A stretch of DNA of 64,000 bases from Elusimicrobiota bacterium (lineage in GTDB: Bacteria; Elusimicrobiota; Elusimicrobia; UBA1565). How positions within the stretch are numbered: position 1 is the stretch's first letter; every line of letters begins with the position of its first letter. The notes under the pieces are model-generated. The model made no database searches and was not told where the DNA came from. It worked only from the letters and a program-made list of their open reading frames with translations. Below are positions 14,575 to 52,030 of this stretch, piece by piece. Made by a program: the position numbers and the translations under genes. The stretch covers positions 64,001 to 128,000 of the forward strand of contig JBDRPD010000039.1 of the NCBI GenBank assembly GCA_043827405.1, in the 5' to 3' direction.

Positions 14575-16335
14575 CTAGGAAGAGCCGGTCGGGGCTTTCG
14601 CCTCGGCCGGCTCTGCTTTGCCGCTGTCTTTGTAGCGCTTGACCGCGCGCAGGGTCAGAAAGTACAGCGGGACCGCCAAGGCCGCGCCGAGGATCAGGCC
14701 GCCGAGCATGGCCGTGCCGAAAACCTGCAGCCCCACGTCCAGAAGCGCATTGATCCCCGCGATCAGCCCTTCATTCGCCGCGCCGAGCAGGCCGGCCAGG
14801 GCTTCGGAGGCCGCCGGGGCCGCGGGGTTGAACCAGCTGCCGATGGTGTATTCCAGCCAGTAGAAGGGCGCCAGCGTCAGCGGGTTGGTGATCCAGATCA
14901 TGCTCATCGCGGCCGCGGTGCTCGCGCGCAGCGGCTTGCTGAGCGCCAGGATCATCAGCCACTGCAGGCCCACGGTCGGCGTCATGGCGATGAGGATTCC
15001 CAGCGCCACCCCGCGCGCGATGGTCCGCGCGGAAGTTTCATGCAGCAGCGCGTTCTTGAGCGCGTTGCGCCAGGTGTCGCGGACGCGCGTCCAGCTCCAG
15101 ATGCGGGCGCGCTTGGGGGTCTTGAGAGTCTTCTTGCCGGCCTCGAAGCCGACTTCAGCCAGGATTTCCAGCAGGGCTTTGCGGACCCGGCGGTCGAATC
15201 CGGCGGCCTCCTGCGACATGATCGACAGGGCTTTCTCGATCGACATCCCCTCGCGGTAGGGGCGGTTCTCCATCAAGGCGTCGAAGACGTCGGCGACGGC
15301 TACGATGCGCCCCCATTTGCTTATCTGCCGTCCGCGCTTGCCGAACGGATAGCCTGAGCCGTCCAGGCGCTCGTGATGCTCGAGCGCGACTCTCGCCGCC
15401 AGCTTGCGCAAATCCTTCGGCAGGTGGGAGAGCTCGGACAGCATCTGGGAACCGATCAGCGAATGACGCTTGATGGTCGCGAACTCCTCGTCGTTGAGCT
15501 TGCCGGGCTTGTTGATCGTCTCCGTGATCACCGGTTCCGTCTTGCCGAAATCGTGGTAGGTCGCGGCCCAGGCCAGGCGCTCGGCGAACAGCGGCGTGAC
15601 GCCCATCTTGAGCGCTATCAGCCCGCTCAGCAGGCCGACGCGCAGGGAGTGCCGGCCGGTGCCGGCGTCCCGGGTTTCAATGCGCTTGATCATCGCGTTC
15701 TTGAGCTGGATGCGGCGCCGGTCATGGTCATCGCGAGCATCCAGGCCGCGGTTTGCCAGGAGATTCCAGGAGCGCGATAGCACGCTCTCATAGCGCTCGT
15801 CCTTGATATTGTCGCGGCCGTAGATCGAGGGCTCGTACCAGGAATGGGCCAAGGCGGCTAAAGGGCTCGCGGCGTTTTGTGCGCCGTCAAAAAAGGCGTT
15901 GAGCTCCGCGGATTCCGGCAGCGCGCCGTTCTTCTTGCTAAGGCGAGTCTCGGCGGTCTGGCGGACTGAGCGTCCCTGTCCCGCCGCCCCGGGTACAGGG
16001 GATGCGGTGACGGGCTTGACCTTCGCCGCGCTGTTTCGGGCATGAGCGGGAAGTACCTGCGGCGTTTCGATAACTTGGGTAGGGGCAAAGCGCGGTTTAA
16101 GATCGGGGCTCTGGTTGGGAAGCGGCAGGTTCTCGAGGACGGGGAGAAGCAAGGTGCTGCCGAAGGTCAGCGCCTTCAGCGTGCTGTGCTTGTGCGCGCC
16201 GGAGGCCGCGCCGGCCGCCGCCGCGGCGCCGCCGCTTACGGGCGCCTGCACAACCGGCAATTTCCCGATATTCGCGAAGGCCGGGACGTTGAGCGCGAAG
16301 ATCAGCGTCAGCGCTACGATCCGCGATTTCATCAT
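14575..16335 (-). CDS. Signal peptide + low-complexity leader + HD-GYP domain + DUF2062-like membrane domain
   Basis: HSLRV, YHDFGK, KPGKL, HHERLDGSGYP, ADVFDAL and RPYR motifs; C-terminal IARGVALG..P...WITNPLT TM region. Confidence 0.85.
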   Translation of the reverse strand: MMKSRIVALTLIFALNVPAFANIGKLPVVQAPVSGGAAAAAGAASGAHKHSTLKALTFGSTLLLPVLENLPLPNQSPDLKPRFAPTQVIETPQVLPAHARNSAAKVKPVTASPVPGAAGQGRSVRQTAETRLSKKNGALPESAELNAFFDGAQNAASPLAALAHSWYEPSIYGRDNIKDERYESVLSRSWNLLANRGLDARDDHDRRRIQLKNAMIKRIETRDAGTGRHSLRVGLLSGLIALKMGVTPLFAERLAWAATYHDFGKTEPVITETINKPGKLNDEEFATIKRHSLIGSQMLSELSHLPKDLRKLAARVALEHHERLDGSGYPFGKRGRQISKWGRIVAVADVFDALMENRPYREGMSIEKALSIMSQEAAGFDRRVRKALLEILAEVGFEAGKKTLKTPKRARIWSWTRVRDTWRNALKNALLHETSARTIARGVALGILIAMTPTVGLQWLMILALSKPLRASTAAAMSMIWITNPLTLAPFYWLEYTIGSWFNPAAPAASEALAGLLGAANEGLIAGINALLDVGLQVFGTAMLGGLILGAALAVPLYFLTLRAVKRYKDSGKAEPAEAKAPTGSS

Positions 16336-16482
16336 GCTATTAAGATAGATGGATTGGGGGGATAATGGTTGGGGTATATGTCCCAGACGGCGGGGCCGAT
16401 GGGCCTGGGCCTATCCTCCCAGAAGAAATGGGGCGATTCTATTAAGTTGTATCCTGTATTGTTTGTTGGTAACATATATTGT

Positions 16483-17307
16483 TTGAACATCGATCTGCAT
16501 ACGCATATTCTGCCCAGGACGTGGCCTGATCTGGCCGCGCAGCGCGCCGGCGGTGAGCAGCCCTACCGCGAGGTGCCGGATATCTGTTGGAACATCAAGC
16601 GGCGTCTCGAGGAGATGGACAAAGACGACGTCGGCCTGCATGTTCTCTCGACCGTACCGTCGACTTTTCACTACGGGGCCAAATCCGAGGAAGTTCTTAA
16701 TCTGACGCGCATATTGAACAGCCATCTCGCCGCCTCGGTGGGGATGAATCCCAAGCGCTTTGCGGCGCTGGGGACCTTGCCGCTGCAGGATCCGGCGATG
16801 GCGGTAGGCGAGCTTAAGCGCTGCATGACGCTGCTGGGCCTGCGCGGAGTGGAGATCGGAACTTCGGTCAACGGCCGGGAGCTCGGCGCTCCGGAGCTGT
16901 TCCCGGTGTTTGCGGCTGCCGCCGAGCTGGGCGCCGCCATCCTCGTGCACGGCTCGAAGGACGACTCCGGCCCTGCCGTTAACTCCGTCGCCGCGGCCGG
17001 TATTTTTACCCGCCTGCCGGGGCTCCGCATCGCCTTCTCGCACGGGGGGGGGAATTTCGCCAAGGAGCACGCCGGCAAGTTCTATGCCGACACGCTCGGC
17101 TTGAACGCCGAAGAGGTGAAGGCGCTCGTCGACCTTATCGGAGTCGAGAAGGTCGCCTTCGGTTCGGGCTTCCTGTTCCCGGAAGGGGAAGTGCATTCGG
17201 GCAAGCTCCTCGCCGCGCTGCCGGATCTCGGCGCCGAGGCCAATGAGCGCCTGCTCTCCGGCACCGCCTTCGAATTGTTGGCCCTCACTCCCGACGTTTA
17301 CGTCTGA
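16483..17307 (+). CDS. Amidohydrolase-2 family, shortened ACMSD-like protein
   Basis: IDLHTH, GTLPLQDP, GVEIGT, ILVH and HGGG motifs; probable TTG start at 16483. Confidence 0.8.
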   Translation: MNIDLHTHILPRTWPDLAAQRAGGEQPYREVPDICWNIKRRLEEMDKDDVGLHVLSTVPSTFHYGAKSEEVLNLTRILNSHLAASVGMNPKRFAALGTLPLQDPAMAVGELKRCMTLLGLRGVEIGTSVNGRELGAPELFPVFAAAAELGAAILVHGSKDDSGPAVNSVAAAGIFTRLPGLRIAFSHGGGNFAKEHAGKFYADTLGLNAEEVKALVDLIGVEKVAFGSGFLFPEGEVHSGKLLAALPDLGAEANERLLSGTAFELLALTPDVYV

Positions 17308-17308
17308 T

Positions 17309-18067
17309 TCACTCCACCCGGATGAGATCGTCGGACGCGCCGTCCTGATCGAGCAGGAACCGGACGTAGATATCCATCCGGCTGTCCATGGAGCTCCAGC
17401 GCTTGTAGATGCGGCCGCGCCGGTCGAGGATGATGGTCGTCGGGATTTCGTTGACCCCGTAGAGTTTCGATATCGCCGAATGCTTACCCGAGCGGTCCCA
17501 TATCTGCGGCCAGGCGATGCCGTACTTCGCGAGCGCCGCTGCAAGATCGGCGCGCGTCTTGTCGGTGTTGATGCCGAGAATGACGAGCCCGCGGTCCGCG
17601 TGCTCGGCATGGAGCTTTTTTAGGTCGGGGATGAGCTTGACGCAGGGAGCGCACCAGCTGGCCCAGAAGTCCAGGATCACGACCTTGCCGTGCAGCGAGG
17701 CGAGCGATACTTCTGCGCCGCGCAGGTCGCGGGCGCGGAAATCCGGCGCCGCCGGCAGCTCCGAGTTGTAGCGCCGGCGCATCAGGAAGCCGTCGACGGC
17801 GTCGCAGCTCTTGTACAGCAGCAGCGCCGCGGCCAGAAGGACGAAGGGAATAAGCAGGGCTTTTAGCCAGCCTCCGAGCGAGCGCCGCTTGCGCTCTCTC
17901 TCCGCTTCCTGATCCAGCCGCGCCTCACGTTTCGCAAGGCATTGCGGGCAGTAGATGCTTCCCTGCCAGGCGGCGGCCCCGCATTCGGTGCAGAGCCGCC
18001 GCCCGCAGGCGGCGCAATCCCACTTGACGGGCTGGCCGGGATGACTGTTGCATTCGCCGCCGCTCAT
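17309..18067 (-). CDS. TlpA/ResA-like thiol-disulfide oxidoreductase with N-terminal B-box-like Zn finger and TM anchor
   Basis: CNSHP..CAAC..LCTEC..CPQC, one TM helix, APDF, FWASWCAPC, IPTTIILD. Confidence 0.85.
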   Translation of the reverse strand: MSGGECNSHPGQPVKWDCAACGRRLCTECGAAAWQGSIYCPQCLAKREARLDQEAERERKRRSLGGWLKALLIPFVLLAAALLLYKSCDAVDGFLMRRRYNSELPAAPDFRARDLRGAEVSLASLHGKVVILDFWASWCAPCVKLIPDLKKLHAEHADRGLVILGINTDKTRADLAAALAKYGIAWPQIWDRSGKHSAISKLYGVNEIPTTIILDRRGRIYKRWSSMDSRMDIYVRFLLDQDGASDDLIRVE

Positions 18068-18149
18068 GGTTCCGTTGTAGCAAATCCTCGGCCCGGCGCC
18101 GCTTATTATTGGGTACAATAACCTTCTAATTCCATCCAGGAGCCTGTTT

Positions 18150-19433
18150 ATGAGCGAAAAACACCCGTACTCAGCAGATTTCGAGAAAGCGCTGGAAGTC
18201 GGGCGCCCGCCGAACGTCAAGAAGCTGTTCCCCAATTCCAAGGCGCTGATCGTCAGCGGCAAAGTCATCGATCGCGCCCTGCTCAAGAAGGGCAAGGCGA
18301 TGACCATCGCCGCCAACGGGCGCAACAACCTCGTCATCCGCGGCGCCCTGAAGGCCGCCCAGCGGGCGAACGCGGCGCTGCTCATCGAGATCGCCAAATC
18401 GGAGGGCGGCACCGCCGCCTACTGCGCGCCGGGCCTGTGGGTCCTGGCGCGTCAGGTCGACGCCGCCTGCAACGAGCTCGGCATCACGGTTCCGGTCGCG
18501 GTCCACGCCGACCACTACGGCGTCAAGAAGGAGGCGGATATCGAGCAGGCCAAGACCGAGATTCCGACCTTGTTTGAGGCGGGGATTACCTCGATCGCCA
18601 TCGACGCCTCGCATATGCCCGATGACCAGAACCTGCTGGCCAGCCTCGAGCTCGCCAAGTTCGTGCCTTCGTGGGCGGGCTACGAAACCGAGGTCGGCGA
18701 GATCAAGGGCGACGAAGGGCTGTCCACCAAGGAGGAGGCGCTGTTTTTGATCCGGGGGCTCAACGCCCACGGCATACATCCGGACTGGATCGCCCTCAAC
18801 AACGGCTCCAGCCACGGCATTGAGGCCAGCGCCTCCGGCATCGACGTGCGGCTGACCAAAGAGATCCACGACGCCGTCGCCCCCTACCAGCTCTCCGGCG
18901 CCCAGCACGGCACCTCGGGCAACAGCTCCGAGCGCCTGCTGGAGATCGCGGGACAAACCAATACCACCAAAGCCAACGTCGCGACCGCGCTGCAGATGCT
19001 GTCCTGGGGTGTGGAGGTCAACGACTACGGCAACGCCGAGCTCGACGCCGACGGCAACTTCAAAAAGGACAAGGCCGCCGGCGTGACCGAAGCGCTGTGG
19101 AGCGAGATGGTCGCCTACGCGGCGAAGCAGGGCTGGAAAGGCGGCAACTACAAGAAGCTGAACCTGCCGTTCGAGAACAAGCTGCTGTCCCAGCCCCAGG
19201 AAATCCGCGAGCGCTGCGAGAAGGGCGTCGAGGACTTCGTCTATCACCTGTTGGTCGATGTCTTCAACGCCAAGGACACCGCGCCGCTCGGCATTCAGGC
19301 GATCCTCGAAGCCGGCTCGTATGACCTCGGACCCAAAGGGAAGAAGATCGAGGATCCGACGAACTGGACCAAGGATAAGATCGAAGCCAACGCCCCCAAT
19401 AAGGCGGTCAGCGCCGGCAACTACGACGACTGA
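18150..19433 (+). CDS. fba: Class II fructose-bisphosphate aldolase
   Basis: VHADHY, IDASH, ETEVGEI, NNGSSHG, AQHGTSG and KANVAT motifs. Confidence 0.88.
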   Translation: MSEKHPYSADFEKALEVGRPPNVKKLFPNSKALIVSGKVIDRALLKKGKAMTIAANGRNNLVIRGALKAAQRANAALLIEIAKSEGGTAAYCAPGLWVLARQVDAACNELGITVPVAVHADHYGVKKEADIEQAKTEIPTLFEAGITSIAIDASHMPDDQNLLASLELAKFVPSWAGYETEVGEIKGDEGLSTKEEALFLIRGLNAHGIHPDWIALNNGSSHGIEASASGIDVRLTKEIHDAVAPYQLSGAQHGTSGNSSERLLEIAGQTNTTKANVATALQMLSWGVEVNDYGNAELDADGNFKKDKAAGVTEALWSEMVAYAAKQGWKGGNYKKLNLPFENKLLSQPQEIRERCEKGVEDFVYHLLVDVFNAKDTAPLGIQAILEAGSYDLGPKGKKIEDPTNWTKDKIEANAPNKAVSAGNYDD

Positions 19434-19437
19434 GCGC

Positions 19438-20682
19438 TCAGCGGCTCTTTAGCGCGCCTTTGACCACGCGTACGGTGTCGCGGGCGATGATCAGCTCTTC
19501 GTTGGTAGGCAGGACGTAGAGCTTGATCTTGGAGCCGGCGGCCGAGAACAGCCCCGACGCGCCCGGCTTGAGCCGGCTGTTCCGCTGCCGGTCCAGCTTG
19601 ATGCCGAGATGCTCGAGGTCGGCGCAGACCCGCTCCCGGATCGGCGGCGAGTTCTCGCCCACGCCGCCGGTGAAGCAGATCGCGCGGCACTCCTTGAGCT
19701 CGGCCAGGTAGGCGCCGATATAGCGCCGCACCCGCCGGCAGAATATGCTGACCGCCAGATGCGCGCGCCGGTCCTTCTTCTCGCTCTCCTCTTCCAGGAG
19801 CTCGCGCATGTCGCTGGTCATCCCGGAAAGGCCGAGCAGCCCTGACTGCTTGTTGAGCAGGTTGTCGATCTGCTGCAGGCTCATGCCTTCTTTATGCGCG
19901 AGAAAGTCGATAATGGATGGGTCCATGTCGCCCGCGCGCGTGCCCATGACCAGGCCCTCGAGCGGGGTGAAGCCCATGGAGGTGTCGTAGGATTTGCCGC
20001 TCTTGATGGCGCAGGCGGAGGCGCCGTTGCCGAGATGCAAAGTGATGATGTTCACCTGCTCGGGCTTGAGCTTGTTCAGCTTACGGTAGCGGTAGGCCAC
20101 GTAGCGGTGCGAGGTCCCGTGGAAGCCGTAGCGCCGTATCTTATACCGGCGGTAGAGCTGGTAGGGAATGCCGTAAAGAAAGGAGTCCGGAGGCATGGTC
20201 TGGTGAAATGCGGTGTCGAAGACCGCTACCTGGGCTACCCCTTCGCCGAAGATCTGCTGGGCGGCCTGGATGCCCTTGATATTGGCCGGATTATGCAGCG
20301 GCGCCAGCTCGATGCAGTCCTCAAGGCCCTCCACGACTTCCGGCGTGATGCGGACCGAGCCGCTGAAGCGTTCGGCGCCGTGCACCACCCGGTGGCCGAC
20401 CGCGTGGATGTCCGCCACCGAGCGGATGCTCTCGATTCGCGACTCCTCGGAGATAATCCAGCGCAGGACGAAGTCGATGGCCTCGCGGTGATCGCGCAGC
20501 GGCATCGCCTTCTTCTCCCTGCCGCCGTTCACTTCGAGGGTGATCAGGCAGCGGCCTCCGATGCGCTCAATCACGCCGCGGGCGATGCGGCGGTCCCGGT
20601 CCTGCTCTATGAGCTTGAGGTCGGTGTCGATGATCTGGAACTTGAGGGTCGAGGATCCGCAGTTGAGTACGAGGATGTTCAT
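19438..20682 (-). CDS. ackA: Acetate kinase
   Basis: ILVLNCGSSTLK, GHRVVHG, APLHNP, YGFHGTSH, HLGNGAS, FTGGVGEN, PTNEE. Confidence 0.97.
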   Translation of the reverse strand: MNILVLNCGSSTLKFQIIDTDLKLIEQDRDRRIARGVIERIGGRCLITLEVNGGREKKAMPLRDHREAIDFVLRWIISEESRIESIRSVADIHAVGHRVVHGAERFSGSVRITPEVVEGLEDCIELAPLHNPANIKGIQAAQQIFGEGVAQVAVFDTAFHQTMPPDSFLYGIPYQLYRRYKIRRYGFHGTSHRYVAYRYRKLNKLKPEQVNIITLHLGNGASACAIKSGKSYDTSMGFTPLEGLVMGTRAGDMDPSIIDFLAHKEGMSLQQIDNLLNKQSGLLGLSGMTSDMRELLEEESEKKDRRAHLAVSIFCRRVRRYIGAYLAELKECRAICFTGGVGENSPPIRERVCADLEHLGIKLDRQRNSRLKPGASGLFSAAGSKIKLYVLPTNEELIIARDTVRVVKGALKSR

Positions 20683-23171: not shown

Positions 23172-23229
23172 GGCCTGCTCCGTCGGAGTGATTTATACGT
23201 ACAGCATATAGAGTTTCGCGCGGGGGTGT

Positions 23230-24096
23230 CTAGAAGCGGTACTGGAGCCCGGCGGAAACGTGGCCGATGGCGGATTCGATGATCGGCGTGGAACGAGAGG
23301 TAAATCCGGCGCTGCCCTCGACGTAGCCGGTAAGGGGATGCTTCCAATGGGTCTCGAAGCCGACGCCGGCCTGCAAAGCGCCGAAGATGCGGGTGCCGGT
23401 GACGCCGGAATAGGTGTAGGCGGGAGCGTTGGTTTCGACGTGGGTGTCGAGCTTCCATAAGTAGCCGGAGGCGTTGAGCTTGATGTAGAACCAGCGCCCG
23501 GCTTTGATATCGAAGCCGAGCCAGTAGATGTCGGTGGCGACGATCTCGCGGACGTAGACGCCGCCCGCGACGATTTCGTTGGTCTTGTAGGTGTCCCAGA
23601 CGCGGCCGAAGACCATGTCAACGCCGCCCAGGTTGTAGTCGAGGCTGTGGATCGCGACCTGAAAACCGGTGCCGGCGGTCTTGGGCCGGGCCTGCCAGGA
23701 GATGCGGCTGAAGGAGGGGGACTGAAAGTCGGTCTTAAGCTGGGTCCAGACGCGGATTCGGGTATAGCCGGCGGAGATGGCCGCCTTGTTTAGGGAGCTG
23801 GGAGCCTTGAGGCGCATGTTCTCGCTGTCGAAAAAGGCGTCGTCGATCGACTGCGGGGCGCCGTCGCTGTCGAGGTCGTCGGGGCTGGAAAGCAGGGTCC
23901 CGATGACGGTCTCGAGGATCTGGGTTCCGAGGTTGGCGGCGCTGTCGGCGCTGCTCAGGGTTCCGTGGGTTTTGAGGTCGGACTTGGCGCGCGCGACCTT
24001 GCCGCTTTTGCTGCGTGTCGTGGCTGTGCGCTTGAAGGCGGCCTGGGCGGGGAGGGACATGACGAGAATAAGCGCCGCGAAGACTGCCCGGTTCAT
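23230..24096 (-). CDS. Hypothetical exported protein, probable small outer-membrane beta-barrel at C-terminus
   Basis: Signal peptide MNRAVFAALILVMSLPAQA; alternating aromatic/Gly strands; ends in YRF. Confidence 0.6.
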   Translation of the reverse strand: MNRAVFAALILVMSLPAQAAFKRTATTRSKSGKVARAKSDLKTHGTLSSADSAANLGTQILETVIGTLLSSPDDLDSDGAPQSIDDAFFDSENMRLKAPSSLNKAAISAGYTRIRVWTQLKTDFQSPSFSRISWQARPKTAGTGFQVAIHSLDYNLGGVDMVFGRVWDTYKTNEIVAGGVYVREIVATDIYWLGFDIKAGRWFYIKLNASGYLWKLDTHVETNAPAYTYSGVTGTRIFGALQAGVGFETHWKHPLTGYVEGSAGFTSRSTPIIESAIGHVSAGLQYRF

Positions 24097-24175
24097 GACG
24101 GGAGTATGGTACCTATTCTTCGGCGGCGTTTCTCCATGCTCGCCAGGAGGTGCCAGGTATGATAATCGCGGCCGA

Positions 24176-25663: not shown

Positions 25664-25757
25664 TACTGCACCTAAAGTCAGTGTAGCTATTTGGTAGGGT
25701 GGTTGTTGTATTGTGAGCAGATGAGAGCGCGTGACCAACGGCAGCCAAAAGTGTTGA

Positions 25758-26624: not shown

Positions 26625-26758
26625 CTCGCTGGGGCGCCATCCTTGGGACGCAGCATGCGGATCGCCCTCTCCAGTTTGCCCGCATAGGTCTTTAGTCCCA
26701 GAAAACGGTGGGACTTTTTCACCTTTCGCTTTCCCCCAATAGCCCACATACTGGGAGC

Positions 26759-27613
26759 ATGAGCAAGCGGGGCTTCATCCTGACCTTCTGCCTAACCCTC
26801 AGCCTGGTCGGCTGCCGGGAAAAGGGGGACAAAGCCGAGAGCTGCGGCGACTCGTCCCCGCGCGCCTATGCCGCCAATAGCAAGGAGGCATCCGCCTCCG
26901 ACACCTCCCAAGCGCAGAGCCGGTTGGGAAGCGCCGGGCAATCCGCCGTCCAGGCCCGCTCTCTCGGTAGCGGCGCCGCGGCGGACGCGGAGTCGCTCCG
27001 CCACAATGCTTCCAGGACCTTTGACGGTGCCGGCAGCCTGTCCGGCCTAACGCGCAACTCGGCCGTCTACGCCGGAGGGACCTCCAGCTATCCGCCGCGG
27101 CCGGAGCTGAAGATGCAGCAGCCCCGCAAGTTCCGGAGCTCGGCCCAGGAGCCGCCGTCCCCGCAGCTCGGCGCCGCCGGCGCCGGGAGCCTCTCGATCC
27201 GCAACGATCTGGGAGAGAAAATTACCGTCGCCTACAAGAACGCCGCCGGCCGCATCAACGCGGGCGCGCTGCAGCAGATCAGCCGCATCTTCCGCGATGA
27301 AAGGAACGGGAAGTACCGCGCCGTCCCGGTCGGCCTGGTGGACACCCTGGCCAAGATCCAGCAGCGGTTCGGAAACAAGACCATCCATCTCGTCAGCGGC
27401 TACCGCAGCCCGGAGACCAACAGCAAGCTGCGCCAGAGCAGCAAGAAGGTCGCCAAGAACAGCCTGCACATGCAGGGTATCGCCGCCGACATCCAGATCC
27501 CCGGGGTCTCGAGCTACGCCGTCGCCAAGTACGCCAAATCCCTCAAGGCCGGCGGGGTGGGGACGTACTCGACCTTCGTGCACGTCGACATCGGCGGCGT
27601 ACGCTACTGGTAG
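26759..27613 (+). CDS. Lipoprotein with C-terminal YcbK/DUF882 (M15A-type) peptidoglycan peptidase domain
   Basis: Lipobox LVGC; SGYRSPETN, SLHMQGIAADI, GGVGTY and FVHVD motifs. Confidence 0.88.
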   Translation: MSKRGFILTFCLTLSLVGCREKGDKAESCGDSSPRAYAANSKEASASDTSQAQSRLGSAGQSAVQARSLGSGAAADAESLRHNASRTFDGAGSLSGLTRNSAVYAGGTSSYPPRPELKMQQPRKFRSSAQEPPSPQLGAAGAGSLSIRNDLGEKITVAYKNAAGRINAGALQQISRIFRDERNGKYRAVPVGLVDTLAKIQQRFGNKTIHLVSGYRSPETNSKLRQSSKKVAKNSLHMQGIAADIQIPGVSSYAVAKYAKSLKAGGVGTYSTFVHVDIGGVRYW

Positions 27614-39808: not shown

Positions 39809-39819
39809 TCCAGGGATGT

Positions 39820-39848: not shown

Positions 39849-39855
39849 GCGGTTC

Positions 39856-41190: not shown

Positions 41191-41204
41191 GCCCTATTTA
41201 AGCA

Positions 41205-44811: not shown

Positions 44812-44816
44812 CGATT

Positions 44817-44847
44817 AAAAAAGCCCGCTGGACCGATGCCCAGCGGG
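44817..44847 (-). terminator. Intrinsic terminator in the leader of the ABC exporter operon (attenuator)
   Basis: Minus strand CCCGCTGG-8 nt-CCAGCGGG-C-TTTTTT, ending 5 nt before ATG 44811. Confidence 0.7.
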
Positions 44848-44942
44848 AACATTCGACATGCGGTTTCCCGTGACCCCTGCGCCGTCATTTTACCAGGATG
44901 GAGCCGGTATTTCAATAGCGCCGCGCGCCGTTAATTATATTC

Positions 44943-44971
44943 TTGAATTGTGCAAATTCTTGTGATACGCT
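44943..44971 (+). promoter_or_regulatory. Sigma70 promoter for 44987 gene
   Basis: TTGAAT-17 nt-TACGCT with TGn extension. Confidence 0.5.
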
Positions 44972-44986
44972 AGACAAGTAATCCGC

Positions 44987-45532
44987 ATGACTGAAGAGAG
45001 CGAAAACAAGCCGCCGCCCAGACCCAAGCTGCCGCCGAAGCCGGGCCAACCGGCGCCGGCGGCGAGCCCGCCGCCGCAGCCCGCGCCCGCCGCACCCGGC
45101 GGGATGCCGCCTGCACCCGGCGGGATGCAGCCCGGACCCGGCGGGATGCCGCCCGGACCCGGCGCGATGCAGCCCGGACCCGGCGCAATGCCGCAGCAGA
45201 TGCCGGCCGCCCCGTCGCCGCCGCCGCGCCCCTGTCCTATTTGCAGCCAGCAGTTGACCTATATCCCGTACTACCAGGCCTGGTACTGCTATAACTGCCA
45301 AAAGAACCCCGATACGTCGCAGCCGCAGCGCCGGCGCTTTTGTTCCTTTTGCGGCGGCGGCCTAACCTATGTCGATCAGTACCAGTCGTGGTACTGCATG
45401 GCTTGCCAGCGCTATCCTGACCAGGCCTCGGCGCCCGCCCAGCATACCTGTCCGGCCTGCGGCGGCGGCCTGGGCTACGTGCCTCAGTATCAGGCATGGT
45501 ACTGTTACGCCTGTCAGAACTACGCGAACTGA
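44987..45532 (+). CDS. Pro/Gly-rich protein with three zinc-ribbon repeats
   Basis: Three CxxC-xx-LxYxxxYQxWYCxxC units after a Pro-rich N-terminus. Confidence 0.8.
   Translation: MTEESENKPPPRPKLPPKPGQPAPAASPPPQPAPAAPGGMPPAPGGMQPGPGGMPPGPGAMQPGPGAMPQQMPAAPSPPPRPCPICSQQLTYIPYYQAWYCYNCQKNPDTSQPQRRRFCSFCGGGLTYVDQYQSWYCMACQRYPDQASAPAQHTCPACGGGLGYVPQYQAWYCYACQNYAN
45095..45193 (+). repeat. Coding tandem repeat, 21-bp unit x ~4.7
   Basis: CCCGGCG(G/C)GATGC(C/A)GCC(T/C)G(C/G)A units encoding PG(G/A)M(P/Q)P(A/G). Confidence 0.9.
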
Positions 45533-45574
45533 TCGGCGCGCGTTTTTTGTAGAATATACTCCCGCCCGTTAAAC

Positions 45575-45646
45575 GCGCTCATGGTGAAACGGATATCACG
45601 ACAGCCTCCGGAGCTGTAAGTTCAGGTTCGATTCCTGATGAGCGCA
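45575..45646 (+). tRNA. tRNA-Arg(CCG)
   Basis: Acceptor GCGCTCA/TGAGCGC; anticodon arm ACAGC-CTCCGGA-GCTGT; T arm with GGTTCGATTCC; CCA not encoded in register. Confidence 0.95.
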
Positions 45647-45720
45647 AACCATTTCTAAAATAACAGCTCTGCTTCTTTTCCCAGTAAACATGCCTGGCAC
45701 CTTTACTGGAGCGCGGGGTT

Positions 45721-46023
45721 TTATTTTTGTTCGGCGGCCGGGGGCTTCGCCGCTTCTTTTTTAGCGATGGCGGCGGACGTGCGGGCGGCGAAGACGAAGA
45801 AGGCGATCGCGACGACGGAGGCGATGACCATTTTCGCCATCTCGCCGGAAGGCGGGCGGCCCGGTCGCCCCGCGCCGCGCATCAGGAAGCCGATGATGAT
45901 CGACGCCACCGAGGCGGTCAGCAGATAGGGCAGCGCGAACGCGCCGCCGAGATAGCCCTTGATGCCGCCCATCATCAGGCAGAAGCCGAAATAGAGCAGG
46001 GCGTAGGTCAGGGTCGTCGCCAT
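45721..46023 (-). CDS. Small hypothetical membrane protein (3 TM)
   Basis: Hydrophobic ORF 9 nt downstream of alaS on the same strand. Confidence 0.65.
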   Translation of the reverse strand: MATTLTYALLYFGFCLMMGGIKGYLGGAFALPYLLTASVASIIIGFLMRGAGRPGRPPSGEMAKMVIASVVAIAFFVFAARTSAAIAKKEAAKPPAAEQK

Positions 46024-46032
46024 ATGCCGGAT

Positions 46033-48753
46033 CTAGGACAGCGTCTCTTTGACCGTATTAATCAGCATTTCCCAGTCGACATCCGGCCCGCCGCCCTGGG
46101 CAAAGTCCTTGCGGCCGCCGCCCTTGCCCTTCTGCGCCTCGGCTACCGCTTTGGCGATCTTGGAGGCGTCGACGCCCTTGCCGACCAGGTCCTGGGTGAC
46201 GCTGACGACGAACGACAGCTTGTGGTCGTTCGCCGCGCCGAGAAACACCACCCCGGTGCCGAGTTCGCGCTTGACTTGATCGGAGATCGTGCGCAGCGTC
46301 TGCAGCTCGGCGCTGTCGAACTTCTGCACTGAGAGCTTGATGCCGCCAACCTCGAGCAGCATCAGTCCGATCTGCGCCTGCTGCATAAGCTTCTCGCGTT
46401 TGAGGTCGGTGAGCTGGCGCCGGTGCTTCTTGTCCAGCTTCTCCATCAAAGCCAAGGCCTTGTCGATCTCGGCGGCCGGCGCGGTCTCGGGGTCGGGCAG
46501 GTCGCGCAGCACGTCCCGATACGGGAGTCCCGAAACGGACTGGATCTTCGAGGTGATGACGATATAATCCTTAAGCGCCGTTTTGAGCGCTTCGCGCTTG
46601 AGGTTTTCTTCCTGCCGCTCACGCTCATCGAGCGCGGGCCCCGCGACAGCCTCGATGCGGCGAATGCCGGCGGCGACCGAGCTCTGCTTGATGACCTTGA
46701 ACTGTTTGATCTCGCCCGTGCGCTTGACGTGGGTGCCGCCGCAGAGCTCGAGGCTGAAGCGGTCCTGCGGGTCGTCCCAGCCGCGGGCGCCGATCAGCAG
46801 GAAGCGGGGCTTCTCGCCGTAGTTTTCGCCCAGCAGCGTGCGGGCGTTGAGCGTCTTGGCGTCCTCGGCCGCCCGTTCCTGCGCGGCGACGGTATAATCA
46901 GCCAGAATCGCTTCGTTGGCGATCTCTTCGATCTTCCATATCTCGTCGCGGTCGAGCGGTTCCGGGTAGGTGAAGTCGAAGCGCAGGCGATCGGGCGCTA
47001 CGAATGAGCCGGCCTGCCGGATCGTATCGCCCAGGATGCGCTGCAGCGCTTCATTGAGCAGATGCGTCGCCGTATGATGGTAGGCGGTGGTCCGACGGCG
47101 GGCGAGGTCGACGCGCGCCAGTACGCGCGTTCCCGGACGAATCTCCTTATGCGCGATGATCCGGTGTATGATAAGCCCGGGGAGGGGTTTTTGCGTATCC
47201 ACCACCTTGGCCACGATCTTTTCCGTGACGTCGTCGAGGAGTTCTCCTGCGTCGCCGACCTGGCCGCCGCCTTCCGGATAGAAGGGGGTGCGCACCAGAA
47301 GGATTTCGCCCTCGTCGCCGGGGGCGAGCGTCGCTTGGCCGCCGATGATGGCGGAGATCTTGGTCTCTTGTTCCGTCTTCGTGTAGCCGACAAATTCGCT
47401 GGCATAGCCTTCGGCGGCATAGCGCTGATACTTGTCCTTCGAGGTTTCGCCCGAGCCCTTCCAGCCGGCACGTGCGGTCTCGACCGCCTTTTCCTGCGCC
47501 GTATGGAAGCTCTTTTCGTCGAGGGTGATTCCTTTCGCCTGGCAGATCTCGCGCGTCAGCTCAAGGGGAAAGCCGAAGCTGTCGTAGAGCTTGAAGGCCT
47601 GCTCGCCGGACAGGCGCTTGTCATTGCTTTTCAGGATGTCCTGCAGTTCGCGCTCGCCCTTCTCGAGCGTCTCCAGGAAACGCTTCTCTTCAGCCATAAG
47701 CGTCGCTTCGACCTGCGGCCGCGACGCGCCCAGCTCCGGATAGGTGTCGTTGAAGATCGCGATGGCCGGCTTGACGAGAGTGTGCAGAAACGGCTCTTTG
47801 GCGCCGAGCAGCCGCCCGTAGCGCGAGGCGCGGCGGATGAGGCGGCGCAGGACATAGCCCCGTTCGACGTTCGATGGGATGATCCCCTCCGCGGTGAGCA
47901 TTACGGCGGCGCGGATATGGTCCGAGATGATGCGGTAGGCCGTTTCCGTTTCGGCCTGCTCTTTGGGGACCAGGCCGGTGAAGACGGGCGCCGGTACGCC
48001 GAGGTGTTCCGACGCGGCTTGGCGGATGGGATCGAAGAGGCTGGTCTGAAAGGGGCTCGCTTTGCCTTCCACCAGCATGGCTAAACGTTCGAGCCCCATT
48101 CCGGTATCGATGTTCTGGTTCGGCAGGGTCTTGAGCGACCCATCCTCCTGCCGGTTGAACTGCATGAAGACCAGGTTCCAGATTTCGATGTAGCGGTCGC
48201 CGTCACCGCCCACGACGTCTCCGGGTCCCCGGCCCATCTCCGGCCCGAGGTCGTAATAGATCTCGGAGCAGGGGCCGCAGGGGCCGGTTTCGCCCATGGC
48301 CCAGTAGTTGGTGTCTTCGCCCAGACGGTAGATCTCGTTCGGGATGCCTTCCTTTTCCCACAGCTTTTCGGCTTCGTCATCGTCCTTGAATATCGTCACG
48401 TACAGGCGCTTCGGGTCGAGGCCTATGACATGGGTCAGGAAATCCCAGGCAAAGTGGATCGCGTCCTGCTTGAAGTAATCGCCGAATGAGAAATTGCCGA
48501 GCATCTCGAAGAACGTCATGTGCCTGATCGTGGTGCCGACGATGTCGATGTCGACGGTGCGGAAGCACTTCTGGCAGGAGGCCGCGCGGTTGGTGCCCGT
48601 TTTAAGCCCCAGGAAGTAGGGCTTGAAGGGCACCATGCCGGCGATGTTGAACATGACCGTCGTATCGCCCTCAGGGATAAGCGGCGTGGATGCCGTTATG
48701 TGATGGCCCTTGTGGTCAAAATAAGTAAGGAATTTCTCGCGTAAATCACTCAC
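46033..48753 (-). CDS. alaS: Alanine--tRNA ligase
   Basis: FFEMLGNFSFGDYFK, GPCGPCSE, DTGMGLER, editing HTATH and ELCGGTH, C-terminal GGGR..FAQGGG. Confidence 0.98.
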   Translation of the reverse strand: MSDLREKFLTYFDHKGHHITASTPLIPEGDTTVMFNIAGMVPFKPYFLGLKTGTNRAASCQKCFRTVDIDIVGTTIRHMTFFEMLGNFSFGDYFKQDAIHFAWDFLTHVIGLDPKRLYVTIFKDDDEAEKLWEKEGIPNEIYRLGEDTNYWAMGETGPCGPCSEIYYDLGPEMGRGPGDVVGGDGDRYIEIWNLVFMQFNRQEDGSLKTLPNQNIDTGMGLERLAMLVEGKASPFQTSLFDPIRQAASEHLGVPAPVFTGLVPKEQAETETAYRIISDHIRAAVMLTAEGIIPSNVERGYVLRRLIRRASRYGRLLGAKEPFLHTLVKPAIAIFNDTYPELGASRPQVEATLMAEEKRFLETLEKGERELQDILKSNDKRLSGEQAFKLYDSFGFPLELTREICQAKGITLDEKSFHTAQEKAVETARAGWKGSGETSKDKYQRYAAEGYASEFVGYTKTEQETKISAIIGGQATLAPGDEGEILLVRTPFYPEGGGQVGDAGELLDDVTEKIVAKVVDTQKPLPGLIIHRIIAHKEIRPGTRVLARVDLARRRTTAYHHTATHLLNEALQRILGDTIRQAGSFVAPDRLRFDFTYPEPLDRDEIWKIEEIANEAILADYTVAAQERAAEDAKTLNARTLLGENYGEKPRFLLIGARGWDDPQDRFSLELCGGTHVKRTGEIKQFKVIKQSSVAAGIRRIEAVAGPALDERERQEENLKREALKTALKDYIVITSKIQSVSGLPYRDVLRDLPDPETAPAAEIDKALALMEKLDKKHRRQLTDLKREKLMQQAQIGLMLLEVGGIKLSVQKFDSAELQTLRTISDQVKRELGTGVVFLGAANDHKLSFVVSVTQDLVGKGVDASKIAKAVAEAQKGKGGGRKDFAQGGGPDVDWEMLINTVKETLS

Positions 48754-48782
48754 GTGCTCATTGTAGCAAACAACGTCCGGTC

Positions 48783-48851
48783 CCTGTTATTAACATTAAC
48801 TTTTTACTTCTTTGTGTTGTGAGATCTAGAAAAGTTAATGTTAATAACAGG
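48783..48851. repeat. Perfect 22-bp AT-rich inverted repeat with 25-bp spacer
   Basis: CCTGTTATTAACATTAACTTTT (48783-48804) and AAAAGTTAATGTTAATAACAGG (48830-48851). Confidence 0.95.
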
Positions 48852-48858
48852 TACCGAA

Positions 48859-49884
48859 ATGAAAAGGATTCTGGTCGGCAAGCCGGGCGGACATGACGTG
48901 CTGGCGCTCGTTGAAGAGCCGGATCCGCGGCCCGGAGAAGGGCAGGCGCTCGTCAAAGTGCGCGCCGCGGGCGTCAACTACGCGGACTGCATGGTGCGGA
49001 TGGGCTACTATGCGGCGGCCAAAGGTCTCTATCCCATCACCCCGGGCTTCGAGTTCGCCGGCACGGTCGAGAGTACGGGCGAGGGCGTAGCGGACTTCGC
49101 GCCGGGAGACCGGGTGTTCGGGATCACCCGTTTTGGCGGCTACGCGGACCGCATCGTCGCGGATGCGCGGCTGCTGTGGCGCTGCCCGGAGGAATGGGAT
49201 TTCGCCGACTGTGCGGGCTTCCCCGCCGTTTTTCTGACGGCCTATTACGGGCTGTTCCGGGCGGCGCGGGTCGAGAAGGGGGAGAAGCTGCTGATCCATT
49301 CGGCGGCCGGCGGCGCGGGGGCCGCCTTCGTGCAGCTGGCCAATATTAAGGGCTGCCCTACCGTAGGCGTGGTCGGCGCCGCGCATAAAGCGGTTTACGC
49401 TCGCGATCTCGGCTGCGGCACCGTCATCACGCGCGCCGAAGAGAACCTCTGGAAGGCGGCCCGGCGCGCGGCGCCGGACGGTTTTGCCGCGATTTTCGAC
49501 GCCAACGGCGTCTCCACGCTGCGCCGGGGTTATGAGCATCTCGCTCCGGGCGGCCGCCTGGTCGCTTACGGCTTCGCCGAGATTATGCCGCGCGGCAAGG
49601 ACGTCCCGGGACGGCTCGCTTTGGCCTGGAATTACCTGCGCGTGCCGAGCTTCTCACCGTTGGACATGACGATGAAGAACCGGGCGGTAGTAGGCTTTAA
49701 TGTCGTCTACCTGTTCGCCGACGGCGCGCTGGTGCGCCGAGCGATGGCCGAACTTCTGGGCTGGGTCGCGGCGGGGAAAATCCGCAAGGCGCCGGTTACC
49801 TGCTTCCCTTTGCAGCGGGCGGCCGAGGCGCATGCGGCGCTGGAATCGGGAACGACGCAGGGCAAGCTGGTCCTTACGGCATAG
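48859..49884 (+). CDS. MDR-family NAD(P)H:quinone oxidoreductase (VAT-1-like)
   Basis: AAGVNYAD, PGFEFAG, TAYYGL, IHSAAGGAG, GKLVL. Confidence 0.9.
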   Translation: MKRILVGKPGGHDVLALVEEPDPRPGEGQALVKVRAAGVNYADCMVRMGYYAAAKGLYPITPGFEFAGTVESTGEGVADFAPGDRVFGITRFGGYADRIVADARLLWRCPEEWDFADCAGFPAVFLTAYYGLFRAARVEKGEKLLIHSAAGGAGAAFVQLANIKGCPTVGVVGAAHKAVYARDLGCGTVITRAEENLWKAARRAAPDGFAAIFDANGVSTLRRGYEHLAPGGRLVAYGFAEIMPRGKDVPGRLALAWNYLRVPSFSPLDMTMKNRAVVGFNVVYLFADGALVRRAMAELLGWVAAGKIRKAPVTCFPLQRAAEAHAALESGTTQGKLVLTA

Positions 49885-52030
49885 ACGGCGAGAAGACTCC
49901 CTCGGGAATTCCCCCGGCGACCAGCCACTTGCGGAAGATGCGGACATACTCGGCGTCGGTGCCCGCGCGCTTCATGTTCTTGCGGTAGCCGCCGATCGTC
50001 CAGCGTCCGTCGGACTCCAGCACCACGTAAAAGACCTGATCCGCGGAGCGGTTGTCCGGATCCCTGCCGGTCTTCGCGTCGCGCACGGCGTTGCCGTTGA
50101 AGTTTACGTAGGCGAAGGCTCCCGCACGCGATATTTCCTCAATGGACTTGCCCGAAGGGGTTAGGATGTCCTGCCCCATCTCCCGCAGGAAATCGCCCTG
50201 CGCGTTGTGCGGAAAGCCGGCGGTGAGCCGCTCGACGCGGTCGCGCTGCAGGATTTGGACCAGGATGCGCCGTGCGAGCTTCTCGTCGCGGTTGCTGCGC
50301 AGCAGGCGGTCGATCTCGGGATCCTTCGCGATGAGCTCCTGCACTCGCTGCGTTGTTACGGCCGCCTGCTGTCCGAGCTCCACGATCAAATCGGCGATAT
50401 GCTGGTAGCTGGCTTCAACCTTCGCGCGCTCGCCGGATTTGGCCGTGGCTTCCTGCGGAAAGAAACGCGTCAGCAGCGCGCGTCCGAGTTCGGAATTCGG
50501 CTTGATGCCGCTTTCGTCACTGAGCCATAGGGTGAATAAGCCGCGGTGTTGTTTGGCGGAAGGCTTCATTCCGCCCATCAGGCTGCGTTCATAGGCCAGG
50601 AATCGTCCGGCCGCCTTTTTGAACGGATCGACGGCATCGGCGATGGACCGGCTCAGATTATCCTTGACCGGCGCCGGGGGCGCCCGGGCAAGGGACGGCG
50701 CTTGCAGGCCGGCGGCGCGGCGGAAATGGGCGTAAACATCCTGGAAGTTCGCCCGCAGATTAGGCGGCAGCAGGTTGAAGAACGGGTTCTCCAGCAGAGG
50801 CTTCAGGAAGCCGGACGTCCCCTTGCGGACCATGTCGTCGGTGGGCGTAGCGGCTCGGGCCATGGTCCGGAACTCATGCGCCAGACCCTTTACCGCGCTG
50901 TCGGCAAAAGCCGCCGAATCCAAGTACATTGCCGTCTGATCCGCGTAGGCCAAGAGCCGTCCCAATGTGGTCCACTTCGCGGCCAGCGCTTCCCCGAAAT
51001 AAGTTTTGGCCATTTGTTCCGCGTCCTGTTGGATCTGCGCCATGGCCGCTTGGTCGGGATTGAAATCGGTAAACTTGATTAAGGCCTTAAGCTGGCCTCG
51101 TCCCCGGTCTCCCAGCCCCAGGTCCTTAAAGAGGGCGCGGGCGGCGGGATCGGTGTCGAGGTATTCGAGCGTCGCGGACACGCGGGCGGGGGTGCCGGGT
51201 GTTCGACGGGGATCCACGTCGTGCAGCGCCGCGGCTACGAGCAGTAGGGCCTTTTCCGCCCGGCTCAGCTTGCTCCCAGCCGGTCCGGCGAGGACGCCCG
51301 CCATGGTGTCCGCCACGCGTTTGGAGTGGAGCAGGCCGTGGTAGACCTTTTTTTGGTCGCCGGGATGCTGCGTCTTGAGAATGTCTGCAAGCTTCTGGAT
51401 TTGCGCGTTGGGGACGCCGTTGTACGCCAAGGAGCGGATGAAATTATAACCGCTTGGACCCTGAAAGCCGTTTCTGCCCGCGCCGCCGGGCGCAACGGCG
51501 TCATCCTTGCCGCTGGCAGGAAGATTGCCGGAGCCGTCGAACAGCTTGGCGCTGATGCCCGCGCTTTGCTCGGCGCCGATTCCGCCCGCGCTTTCTCCGT
51601 CGGTCTTTCCCTGCAGCTTACCGCTGCCGTCCTGGAAGCCGCTGAGGGCCTTCTGGAATCCTTCACTGCCCAGCTTGGGCGCCGAGTTCGCGGGGCTTAT
51701 TTCCTCGCCGCCGGCGGGCAGAGCTTTTCCCGGCGCGGCCTGCACGCGGATATCGCTCCCGCCGTTGACGGCCTTCTGTCCGGGCGGCAACGCCCGGAGG
51801 TTCGGGGTCTCAACCGACGGCAAGGTCTGGCCGTCAATGGTTGGGACCGTCAAGCCGCCGGGGCCGGTCAGTGATGTAAGCGGCGCGGTCAAGGACGCGC
51901 CCGCGGCTCCGACCCCGCCCATATTCGCCTGCGCAACAGGGACCTCAAGAACGATGCCTTGGGCGGCGGCAAGAAACGGCGCGGCGATGGGGAGAAGCAA
52001 GGCCAGGAGAGGAGGTAGTTTGTGTTTCAT
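49874..52030 (-). CDS. Exported protein: signal peptide + low-complexity leader + HD/PDEase-like domain + unknown C-terminal domain
   Basis: Signal peptide; YHGLLHS...AAALHDVD...LLAYAD. Confidence 0.7.
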   Translation of the reverse strand: MKHKLPPLLALLLPIAAPFLAAAQGIVLEVPVAQANMGGVGAAGASLTAPLTSLTGPGGLTVPTIDGQTLPSVETPNLRALPPGQKAVNGGSDIRVQAAPGKALPAGGEEISPANSAPKLGSEGFQKALSGFQDGSGKLQGKTDGESAGGIGAEQSAGISAKLFDGSGNLPASGKDDAVAPGGAGRNGFQGPSGYNFIRSLAYNGVPNAQIQKLADILKTQHPGDQKKVYHGLLHSKRVADTMAGVLAGPAGSKLSRAEKALLLVAAALHDVDPRRTPGTPARVSATLEYLDTDPAARALFKDLGLGDRGRGQLKALIKFTDFNPDQAAMAQIQQDAEQMAKTYFGEALAAKWTTLGRLLAYADQTAMYLDSAAFADSAVKGLAHEFRTMARAATPTDDMVRKGTSGFLKPLLENPFFNLLPPNLRANFQDVYAHFRRAAGLQAPSLARAPPAPVKDNLSRSIADAVDPFKKAAGRFLAYERSLMGGMKPSAKQHRGLFTLWLSDESGIKPNSELGRALLTRFFPQEATAKSGERAKVEASYQHIADLIVELGQQAAVTTQRVQELIAKDPEIDRLLRSNRDEKLARRILVQILQRDRVERLTAGFPHNAQGDFLREMGQDILTPSGKSIEEISRAGAFAYVNFNGNAVRDAKTGRDPDNRSADQVFYVVLESDGRWTIGGYRKNMKRAGTDAEYVRIFRKWLVAGGIPEGVFSPSMP

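Follow-up and report, generated by a model that had tools for sequence, protein, structure and literature searches.

In two-partner secretion, of which CdiA with its TPS domain is an example, and in curli export, in which CsgA passes via CsgG by means of its N22 segment, a Sec signal peptide is followed by a second N-terminal signal. Bipartite signals are also found in eukaryotes, in the form of the signal peptide plus transit peptide of complex plastids and of the RXLR-dEER and PEXEL host-targeting motifs. Here we describe a leader of an Elusimicrobiota bacterium (genome of 4.33 Mb, 63% G+C, 98% complete) that consists of a predicted Sec signal peptide followed by a tag, and that is carried by 66 of its proteins, including two encoded in the 64,000-nucleotide stretch of DNA that we analysed (the window, contig C39:64001-128000) and called here gene 1 and gene 2. 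As judged from the sequences, the tag is a real, lineage-wide, targeting-like element with an unusual cargo set, and we found no described signal that matches it. Our preferred reading, which we hold with about even confidence, is that these cysteine-poor and mostly co-regulated proteins (57 of the 66 are free of cysteine) would pass into another bacterium, on which the producer feeds, and reach its cytoplasm and inner membrane.

Two-partner secretion and curli resemble the present case in having an N-terminal label for a second machine and unfolded, cysteine-poor passengers. They differ in that TpsB/ShlB stayed below the cut-off in all five near-complete draft genomes in which secretion and pathway markers were looked for (97-99% complete), no TPS or haemagglutinin domain appeared in the cargo scans, the tag is predicted to be disordered and has no beta-helix, and the cargo includes 12-helix transporters and ATP-dependent enzymes. 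With the eukaryotic bipartite signals the leader shares its order of parts, namely a signal peptide, then an acid-poor, basic and disordered label, then any cargo. By this analogy the tag most likely works as they do, although a bacterium has no endomembrane system and the resemblance is one of layout. Polymorphic toxins also join a conserved N-terminal delivery part to a variable C-terminal cargo, but among the 124 neighbours of the tagged genes we found no adjacent immunity gene or toxin cassette, unnamed small genes being possible exceptions. We know of no bacterial secretion signal that carries whole solute transporters plus housekeeping kinases, chaperones and glycogen enzymes.

Among systems acting between cells, the Kil (Tad-like) contact-killing apparatus of Myxococcus, with its needle-less type III secretion system (T3SS*), has been proposed, in the accessible portions of two papers, to deliver effectors via pilus tips (PMC12075869; PMC8460266). 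As in Kil, a Tad pilus and extra pilin-like subunits occur here in a bacterium thought to act on bacteria by contact. Unlike in Kil, no export gate of the FlhA/SctV type was found (0/5 genomes) and the linked hairpin proteins described below match no Pfam family; also, the effectors of Kil are hypothetical in those portions, whereas the tagged cargo of this genome can be listed gene by gene and any killing by it is putative. The available text on the type IVB secretion system (T4bSS) of Legionella describes transmembrane effectors, hydrophobic membrane proteins that are moved to another cell via an inner-membrane intermediate (PMC11602083), and that on Chlamydia describes the export of the glycogen synthase GlgA into the host (PMC3722199). 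In these systems the hosts are eukaryotic and the signals C-terminal or the machines different, whereas our signal is N-terminal and lies behind a Sec-type peptide; VirB4 was found in 0/5 genomes, and most of the named cargo is bacterial-type. Finally, the giant multi-enzyme proteins of Omnitrophota are single chains of more than 10,000 amino acids (aa) for which a surface action on cell walls was proposed (bioRxiv 10.1101/2023.11.21.568195). They are comparable in that they, too, are large, carry a signal peptide, unite enzymes with membrane segments in one chain and are encoded close to pilus-like secretion genes of presumed predators; tagged proteins of 3,386 to 5,435 aa occur here. Unlike those, for which the accessible part of that report describes no shared tag, our tag stands on dozens of separate genes. 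A literature search matched no paper to the tag; subscription journals lay mostly outside this search and supplements were not covered, so a mention there is possible.

A portable leader on 66 proteins

We called 3,490 genes with a codon model made for this genome and flagged 1,047 proteins by a simple, over-inclusive signal-peptide rule; all signal peptides given here are heuristic predictions. A profile covering the N-terminal 85-95 aa was seeded on 23 hand-picked signal-peptide proteins with the motif FDG. It placed 21 of the 23 seeds, when held out, within the top 57 of 3,468 proteins, and converged on 59 proteins at E<1e-3. The final set of 66 was obtained by removing one of these (C22:51959, in which only the signal peptide matches) and adding eight by lower score or corrected start; four further candidates (C23:17656, C52:8029, C53:130382 and C82:5256) were scanned and left out.

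The 66 proteins share the layout of signal peptide, acid-free Ala/Gly stretch, LP(S)V and basic linker, and the consensus leader reads as a signal peptide (often ending PG-x-G-x-Y-x-A-x-A), then A-x-V, AGAAGA and L-x-x-x-LP(S)V. Acidic residues at aa 29-90 number 1.5 in the family and 6.9 in other signal-peptide proteins, while the linker (aa 91-200) has a net charge of +5 and is positive in 54 of the 66. As a membrane anchor the tag would be too polar (8.2, against 4.2 for the signal peptide). A cleavage site of the A-x-A type, in a loose pattern, is present in 61/66, as predicted for Sec export and signal peptidase I; twin-arginine (Tat) motifs are found in 5/66 (28/987 in other signal-peptide proteins) and a lipobox cysteine in 1/66, which fits neither Tat substrates nor lipoproteins. 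The leader is low in complexity, with a mean column identity of 19-20% and no invariant position, and the profile scores are partly composition. The four leaders compared with NCBIfam matched no family, and when the leader and a hairpin protein were looked up in the Atlas, all clusters returned were unnamed and below 0.9; in 3 of 4 Elusimicrobiota were the commonest source.

Are the leaders translated, or do the true starts lie downstream? Among 28 orthologues of the tagged MFS transporter found by cargo sequence alone, the profile recognised the tag in 23; of the remaining five, three begin on visual inspection with a signal peptide, one is truncated at a contig end and one has none. In the 12 closest MFS orthologue pairs the second codon positions of the leader are the best conserved, and a -10-like hexamer stands 4-9 nt before the start codon in 33/66 tagged genes, compared with 487/3,355 others. 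Together these results argue for translation of the leaders, as an earlier note on this DNA had assumed. The leader is supported, at the level of sequence, as portable, translated, lineage-wide and set on very diverse cargo.

That note had regarded leader and FDG together as one portable export tag, a view that it would have dropped if the motif were not enriched beyond chance among signal-peptide proteins. We find FDG in 22/66 proteins and the looser form [FYW]D[GNS] in 33/66, in 30 of these at aa 136-181; the background figures are 24/675 and 100/675. Since our own set was seeded on FDG, the counts from other genomes are fairer: tagged library matches have FDG in 9/56 and the loose form in 16/56, and another set of relatives' tagged proteins has the loose form in 6/20. 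When a profile was made from 25 members not picked for FDG, it found 26 more proteins, of which 15 have FDG, in comparison with 33/910 other signal-peptide proteins (p 2e-14, a value that is partly circular because those 25 members had been found with the FDG-seeded model). In a genome-wide test of three-letter motifs FDG fell outside the top 25, while FDGA did rank genome-wide (17/733 vs 2/1,355). The portability of the leader stands, and FDG is enriched, yet as an optional companion and not a defining part of the tag.

We compared 201 genomes of the class, 75 of them other genomes of the same order, grouped into families labelled f4, f5 and so on. The tag was found in 93/201, including 70/75 of the order, mostly in many copies each (counted up to a ceiling of 26); elsewhere in the class it occurs in f8 (4/4), f30 and f31, and weakly in f4 (14/63) and f10 (2/9). 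Profile searches did not find it in f5 (18 genomes), f6 (13), f7 (9) or f9 (6). A search with the MFS cargo only gave nearly the same distribution, and a phylum-wide sample had the tag in 15/151. In 1.84 billion representative proteins the leader matched 115, and in 113 of these the match begins no later than residue 22; few of the 115 have a known taxonomy, so the tag may extend beyond the phylum. In f4, genomes of 1.4-1.6 Mb (L183-L186) keep tag-MFS fusions of 850-950 aa and have not kept the promoter boxes described below. As for habitat, gene 2 has a share of at least 0.48 in two sequencing runs, both groundwater metagenomes and one possibly the source. Three loose signs place the lineage in Elusimicrobiota: the best full-length AlaRS match among the 80 loci listed (50%), the single named member in ten clusters of tag-bearing proteins, and the Atlas clusters mentioned above.

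Tagged cargo

The tagged enzymes include adenylate kinase, PPK2, ADP-glucose glycogen synthase, amylases, ATP-grasp, Fic, a nucleotidyltransferase, uridine kinase with cytidine deaminase, and MoxR with a fused vWA/DUF58 partner. To these are added nucleases and ATPases (RNase R, endonuclease I, PLD, Lon, ClpB-like ATPases), proteases (S8, S41, HtrA, M3, M28, M48, M50, Rce1-like) and transporters (MFS, ABC, SDF, MscS), and in relatives M13, rhomboid and one Sel1 protein. Over a third of the tagged proteins belong to no family, and 26/66 have at least three membrane segments. Cytoplasmic cofactors are needed by adenylate kinase, PPK2, GlgA, the ClpB-like proteins, Lon, the ABC ATPase, MoxR, ATP-grasp and uridine kinase, while endonuclease I, PLD, Fic and the S8/S41 proteases would do damage if they were active in the cytoplasm of the producer itself. 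Where cytoplasm-type cargo was tested, the genome also has leaderless, cysteine-bearing paralogues. The tagged genes are scattered, and their 124 neighbouring genes are unrelated housekeeping genes or have no family, without a recurring partner.

Some tagged proteins are very large. A whole MoxR/vWA/TPR/DUF58 module is present as two tagged genes of 3,386 and 621 aa (L053:1801-13836, contig C91), in addition to an ordinary operon on contig C70. Two giant tagged paralogues, L015:1801-18108 (5,435 aa) and L057:1801-13884 (4,027 aa), share 38% identity over 3,375 aa, have no cysteine and gave no Pfam or NCBIfam match; the relatives G244 and G250 have tagged open reading frames (ORFs) of ~5,490 aa.

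Cysteine loss and a promoter-like pattern travel with the leader

The mature chains of the 66 proteins contain 14 cysteines in 60,422 residues, and the 57 proteins without cysteine compare with 8.6 expected from length-matched signal-peptide proteins. The loss begins at the predicted cleavage site: in 93 proteins cysteine makes up 2.4% of the residues before A-x-A and 0.11% of the next 60 aa. It is absent from 191 cargo transmembrane segments, compared with 1.8% in the segments of other proteins, and lies at 0.05-0.12% in relatives' tagged proteins. When 15 tagged/leaderless pairs were aligned, 3 of 54 cysteines were kept, two of these in cytidine deaminase.

Upstream of the tagged genes we found a promoter-like pattern with GGNCC-type boxes 75, 59-60, 36-37 and 28 nt upstream of the hexamer. 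At a leave-one-out score of at least 15 bits it precedes 39/66 tagged genes and 27/3,424 others, 19 of these 27 being signal-peptide genes. Similar boxes stand 5' of many tagged genes in relatives of the order, and of none in three f4 genes. Cysteine content, promoter and FDG were not used by the leader profile as a basis for calling members and yet travel with the leader, which argues against a mere spacer.

Where the tagged proteins would act

The predicted cleaved signal peptide and the step in cysteine content at A-x-A suggest that the mature chain leaves the producer's cytoplasm. It might stay on the producer's side, either in the periplasm or within a closed-off contact zone where an attached cell receives ATP and polyphosphate, so that the tag would be a retention or sorting label. 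This is the strongest of the alternatives, although we consider it unlikely. A signal peptide with a cleavage pattern and a loss of cysteine would fit any oxidising compartment, PPK2 and adenylate kinase could make ATP locally, and no foreign membranes would have to be crossed; however, the ordinary signal-peptide proteins of the genome keep 0.64% cysteine. The topology of the cargo is a further obstacle. In membrane proteins Lys/Arg-rich loops lie on the cytoplasmic side (the positive-inside rule). In the MFS cargo the first helix comes straight after the linker, without an intervening membrane segment, and Lys/Arg number 191 on the leader side and 23 on the other; the leader side is the richer in 21 of 21 orthologues. 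By that rule the leader side would face a cytoplasm, whereas with a periplasmic leader the MFS cargo would break the rule in the producer's own inner membrane. The outer membrane offers no way out either, as the BamA-type proteins of the genome point to a normal one, and a normal outer membrane is not known to take helical transporters.

These orientations would be canonical if the signal-like segment were left uncut, or if the Ala/Gly stretch looped back, so that the leader was a membrane tether and the cargo worked in the producer's own cytoplasm and inner membrane at one stage of life. Such a tether would need no new machine and would also account for cargo that depends on ATP, for the basic linker and for membrane segments of near-ordinary hydrophobicity, but it gives no reason for a loss of cysteine right after A-x-A, nor for the duplicates of housekeeping enzymes. 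In addition, the Ala/Gly stretch is too polar to span a membrane, and endonuclease I and PLD would face the producer's own chromosome; we judge this explanation, too, to be rather improbable. Taking the MFS topology, the signs of export and the ATP-dependent or harmful cargo together, we infer that the place fitting all of them would be the cytoplasm of another cell.

That other cell might be nursed instead of exploited. By the same route, a dependent partner, a daughter or a resting compartment could receive a maintenance kit, as an organelle does from its host. ClpB, Lon, HtrA, S41, M3, RNase R, adenylate kinase, glycogen synthase, amylases, MscS and the transporters are similar to the upkeep sets of organelles, and the acid-free tag resembles transit peptides. 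Against this speak the many nucleases and intramembrane proteases (M50, M48, Rce1-like, rhomboid), a producer that itself lacks amino-acid pathway markers, and cargo that, as far as named by Pfam, contains no ribosomal or replication proteins, all of which makes nursing a doubtful proposition. Least probable of all is the absence of any dedicated pathway, that is, ordinary Sec-exported or membrane proteins whose low-complexity spacer was spread by gene duplication, since, for all the leader's low complexity, variable positions and composition-driven scores, the tag sits at the very start of unrelated cargo families across the order and the features that travel with it largely refute this view.

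A candidate conduit

The earlier note had suggested looking for a secretion or pilus machinery that occurs together with the leader. Markers of the type III (SctV/FlhA, PF00771), type IV (VirB4, PF03135) and type VI (TssC, PF05943) secretion systems, one marker per system, were found in none of the five genomes, while a Tad locus is there in full (contig C83:127154-135895), with Flp, TadE, RcpC, a secretin, TadZ/TadA, TadB, TadC and a TPR protein. The genome also has type IV pilus clusters, Omp85/BamA-type genes and five CsgG-like genes; a genome without the tag has one CsgG-like gene, and none occurs among the neighbours of tagged genes. RcpC was found in 178/201 genomes, in every family with the tag, and in none of f6, f9 and f32. 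The gene that immediately precedes the Tad locus encodes a protein with a C-terminal domain of the type IX secretion system (T9SS) type, an arrangement found again in two relatives, and many signal-peptide proteins (L200:477-4823 and others) carry a (Y/W)NPAG motif, which we take to be PorV-like.

In two relatives Tad genes, TadE/G-like pilins, an FtsH-like gene and 3-4 genes of a hairpin family form one locus. The hairpin proteins have a prepilin-like basic start E(R/K)KG (class III-like), a Gly-rich stretch, an FDG-like motif, NVTP(Y/W)Q and a hydrophobic hairpin; the family has at least 11 paralogues, is found in 81/201 genomes of the class and has no Pfam match. In the producer's own genome a hairpin array adjoins the tagged gene of 5,435 aa, and by their match to the promoter four genes linked to the array rank between 5 and 31 of 3,424. 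As the dedicated translocon this family is kept as a candidate only, since its distribution does not exactly track that of the tag. For the same reason we regard the Tad locus with the hairpin array as a candidate conduit only, if the best one that the sequences offer.

In its most far-reaching form, which we think somewhat more likely to be wrong than right, the idea would be an order-wide pathway with organelle-style bipartite targeting, in which any protein that bears the tag and has lost its cysteines, 12-helix transporters and ATP-driven machines included, would go through a Tad-based conduit and help to turn the target bacterium into a feeding compartment run by the attacker's enzymes and exporters. 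The preferred reading itself would comprise the following steps. One regulator would switch the set on, mostly as leaderless transcripts and probably on contact. The signal peptide would bring the chain across the inner membrane and be cut off after A-x-A, leaving it unfolded and disulfide-free in the periplasm, where a second machine, most likely the Tad pilus with the linked hairpin array and the FtsH-like ATPase, would read the acid-free tag and basic linker. Tag and linker would act in the manner of the transit peptides of organelles, and FDG would be a docking site that some cargo lacks. Once inside the target, macromolecules would be degraded by proteases, nucleases and amylases, kinases, PPK2 and glycogen synthase would redirect energy and carbon, phosphodiesterases would damp nucleotide signalling, and the MFS, ABC, SDF and MscS proteins would insert from inside and release the products. 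Among amino-acid pathway markers, HisB and IlvD were found in 0/5 genomes and TrpA in 1/5 (the producer's own), with 14 of 14 controls found; the missing HisB and IlvD fit dependence on other cells.

Several observations weigh against delivery into a fed-on bacterium. The missing markers fit plain scavenging as well, and the presence of glycogen synthase, adenylate kinase and MscS is as compatible with maintenance of a cell as with its plunder. The main difficulty lies in the fully hydrophobic helices, which would have to avoid being integrated into the membrane of the producer: the cargo membrane segments are of near-ordinary hydrophobicity (mean of the best six 1.51 vs 1.15, p 0.10), so that integration into its own inner membrane via Sec would be expected. 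The single best segment alone is weaker in cargo (p 0.002), and a lower hydrophobicity of the MFS cargo relative to leaderless MFS proteins was looked for with two controls and rejected, there being no difference. The extraction of Legionella effectors from an inner-membrane intermediate is, by analogy, a precedent for such an escape. As to the conduit, Tad is also present in untagged families (f5 17/18, f7 9/9), and the hairpin family occurs in untagged f5 (15/18) and was not found in tagged f4 (0/63) or f8 (0/4). The Flp pilin gene does not have the promoter (rank 1,961 of 3,424), nor was the shared pattern present in the DNA upstream of gene 2. To our knowledge, no Tad system passes unfolded chains into a cell. 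Lastly, the related genomes are not independent of one another.

The two genes of the window and their surroundings

The earlier note had described two unlinked genes of one design, each with an HD-superfamily domain behind the leader. Both ORFs and the four motifs lie where it had placed them (Table 1), LPVVQAP of gene 1 stands at 16260 and VPVAQAN of gene 2 at 51943, and the leader profile groups both; the tag of gene 1 scored E 4e-4 against a model built without this gene. The HD_5 match of gene 1 (E 3e-29), with both the HD and the GYP motifs intact, marks it as a predicted HD-GYP phosphodiesterase. No transmembrane segment lies between its leader and this domain, and the C-terminal DUF2062 membrane domain had been absent from the earlier description. 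Gene 1 has the shared promoter-like pattern: a -10-like hexamer stands 6 nt 5' of the ATG, with GGNCC-type boxes ~37 and ~58 nt upstream of this hexamer. A single-sequence AlphaFold model of gene 1 was uninformative (pLDDT 40).

The HD domain of gene 2, although of the same superfamily, is not an HD-GYP domain; its predicted structure has the fold of class I cyclic-nucleotide phosphodiesterases. Compared with catalytic domains of that class the model gave Z scores of 18-19, root-mean-square deviations of 3.3-4.1 and 13-17% identity over ~230 aligned residues, the scores being realignments of structures picked by Foldseek, which itself gave no match at E<=0.001. It has the YH..H and HD metal-ligand motifs; Pfam PDEase_I stayed below its cut-off in gene 2, and the best match of a PDB sequence search with the HD domain reached only E 0.4-0.5. 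A short helix is predicted, at low confidence, for aa 157-164, and the FDG motif comes at its end. Four homologues were compared from other genomes: three have a similar leader and FD[GN], and the remaining one combines a signal peptide with a Leu/Pro stretch of reduced length.

Table 1. Coordinates of the leader genes, their parts and associated features (window coordinates, except for the hairpin family)
Feature	Position	Strand	Basis or remark
Gene 1: leader, HD-GYP domain and DUF2062 membrane domain; 586 aa, 0 cysteine	14575-16335	-	ORF, domain search
Gene 1 predicted Sec signal peptide, aa 1-21, end A-F-A	16273-16335	-	sequence, heuristic
Gene 1 tag, aa 22-95, acid-poor Ala/Gly then Leu/Pro stretch	16051-16272	-	profile, family of 66
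Gene 1 FDG motif AFFDGA, aa 147-152, closing the linker	15880-15897	-	sequence
Gene 1 HD-GYP domain, aa 215-384, catalytic motifs intact	15184-15693	-	domain search
Gene 1 DUF2062 membrane domain, aa 422-569	14629-15072	-	domain search
Gene 1 promoter-like pattern	16336-16415	-	leave-one-out score 14.5 bits
Gene 2: leader, class I phosphodiesterase-like HD domain and unnamed C-terminal domain; 718 aa, 0 cysteine	49874-52030	-	
Gene 2 predicted Sec signal peptide, aa 1-23, A-A-A then Gln	51962-52030	-	sequence, heuristic
Gene 2 tag, aa 24-95	51746-51961	-	profile; disordered in predicted structure
Gene 2 FDG motif KLFDGS, aa 162-167	51530-51547	-	sequence
Gene 2 HD domain, ~aa 195-445, fold as class I cyclic-nucleotide phosphodiesterases	50696-51448	-	predicted structure
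Lipoprotein with M15/DUF882 peptidase domain, RTFDGA at 27014	26759-27613	+	no leader
Signal-peptide protein with AFFDS at 23838, not a family member	23230-24096	-	no leader, no promoter match
Hairpin family, own genome	L189:3597-12237, L190:4788-9203, L191, L192, L193:478-2064, L194, L195, L015:314-1801		
Hairpin family, relatives	L210, L211, L215, L216		tandem arrays, Tad-linked in two relatives

Two other genes of the window had been linked to the motif. The lipoprotein that starts at 26759 does contain RTFDGA, but the leader is missing from it (E 160); with a promoter rank of 30 among 3,424 for the DNA upstream, it is probably co-regulated with the tagged set while taking a different route. 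It shares a Ser/Ala-rich linker with FDGA, and promoter-like boxes, with a second lipoprotein, which has an amidase domain (L199:1272-2423). The gene at 24096 has AFFDS, again without the leader (E 12); we rejected this as a shared motif, since its ranks (617 for the motif, 734 of 3,424 for the promoter) look like chance.

Short exported proteins of the same regulon (C60:38237, C60:27257, C82:5256 and L054) consist of hardly more than a helix with an FDG-like motif, and two of them end a few residues later. A different N-terminal motif after the signal peptide, FDQG then V/I-D-V, was seen in C83:188491, C83:191072, C76:2527, C54:33541 and C54:105597, which keep 2-8 cysteines. The window also encodes, at 59375-61780 on the minus strand, a protein in which a signal peptide, TPR repeats and a membrane segment are combined with a Ser/Thr kinase domain at the C terminus.

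Implications

If delivery into a fed-on bacterium is true, it would mean a predatory or parasitic life for a large groundwater lineage; the accessible part of a report on this lineage (bioRxiv 10.1101/765248) makes no mention of secretion, pili, signal peptides or predation. It would also provide a defined cargo set for Tad pili and a bacterial parallel to organelle protein import. Tag, promoter and cysteine rule together make the set easy to predict. Even under the alternative explanations, about 5% of the proteome would go to a place of which present models of the diderm envelope give no account.

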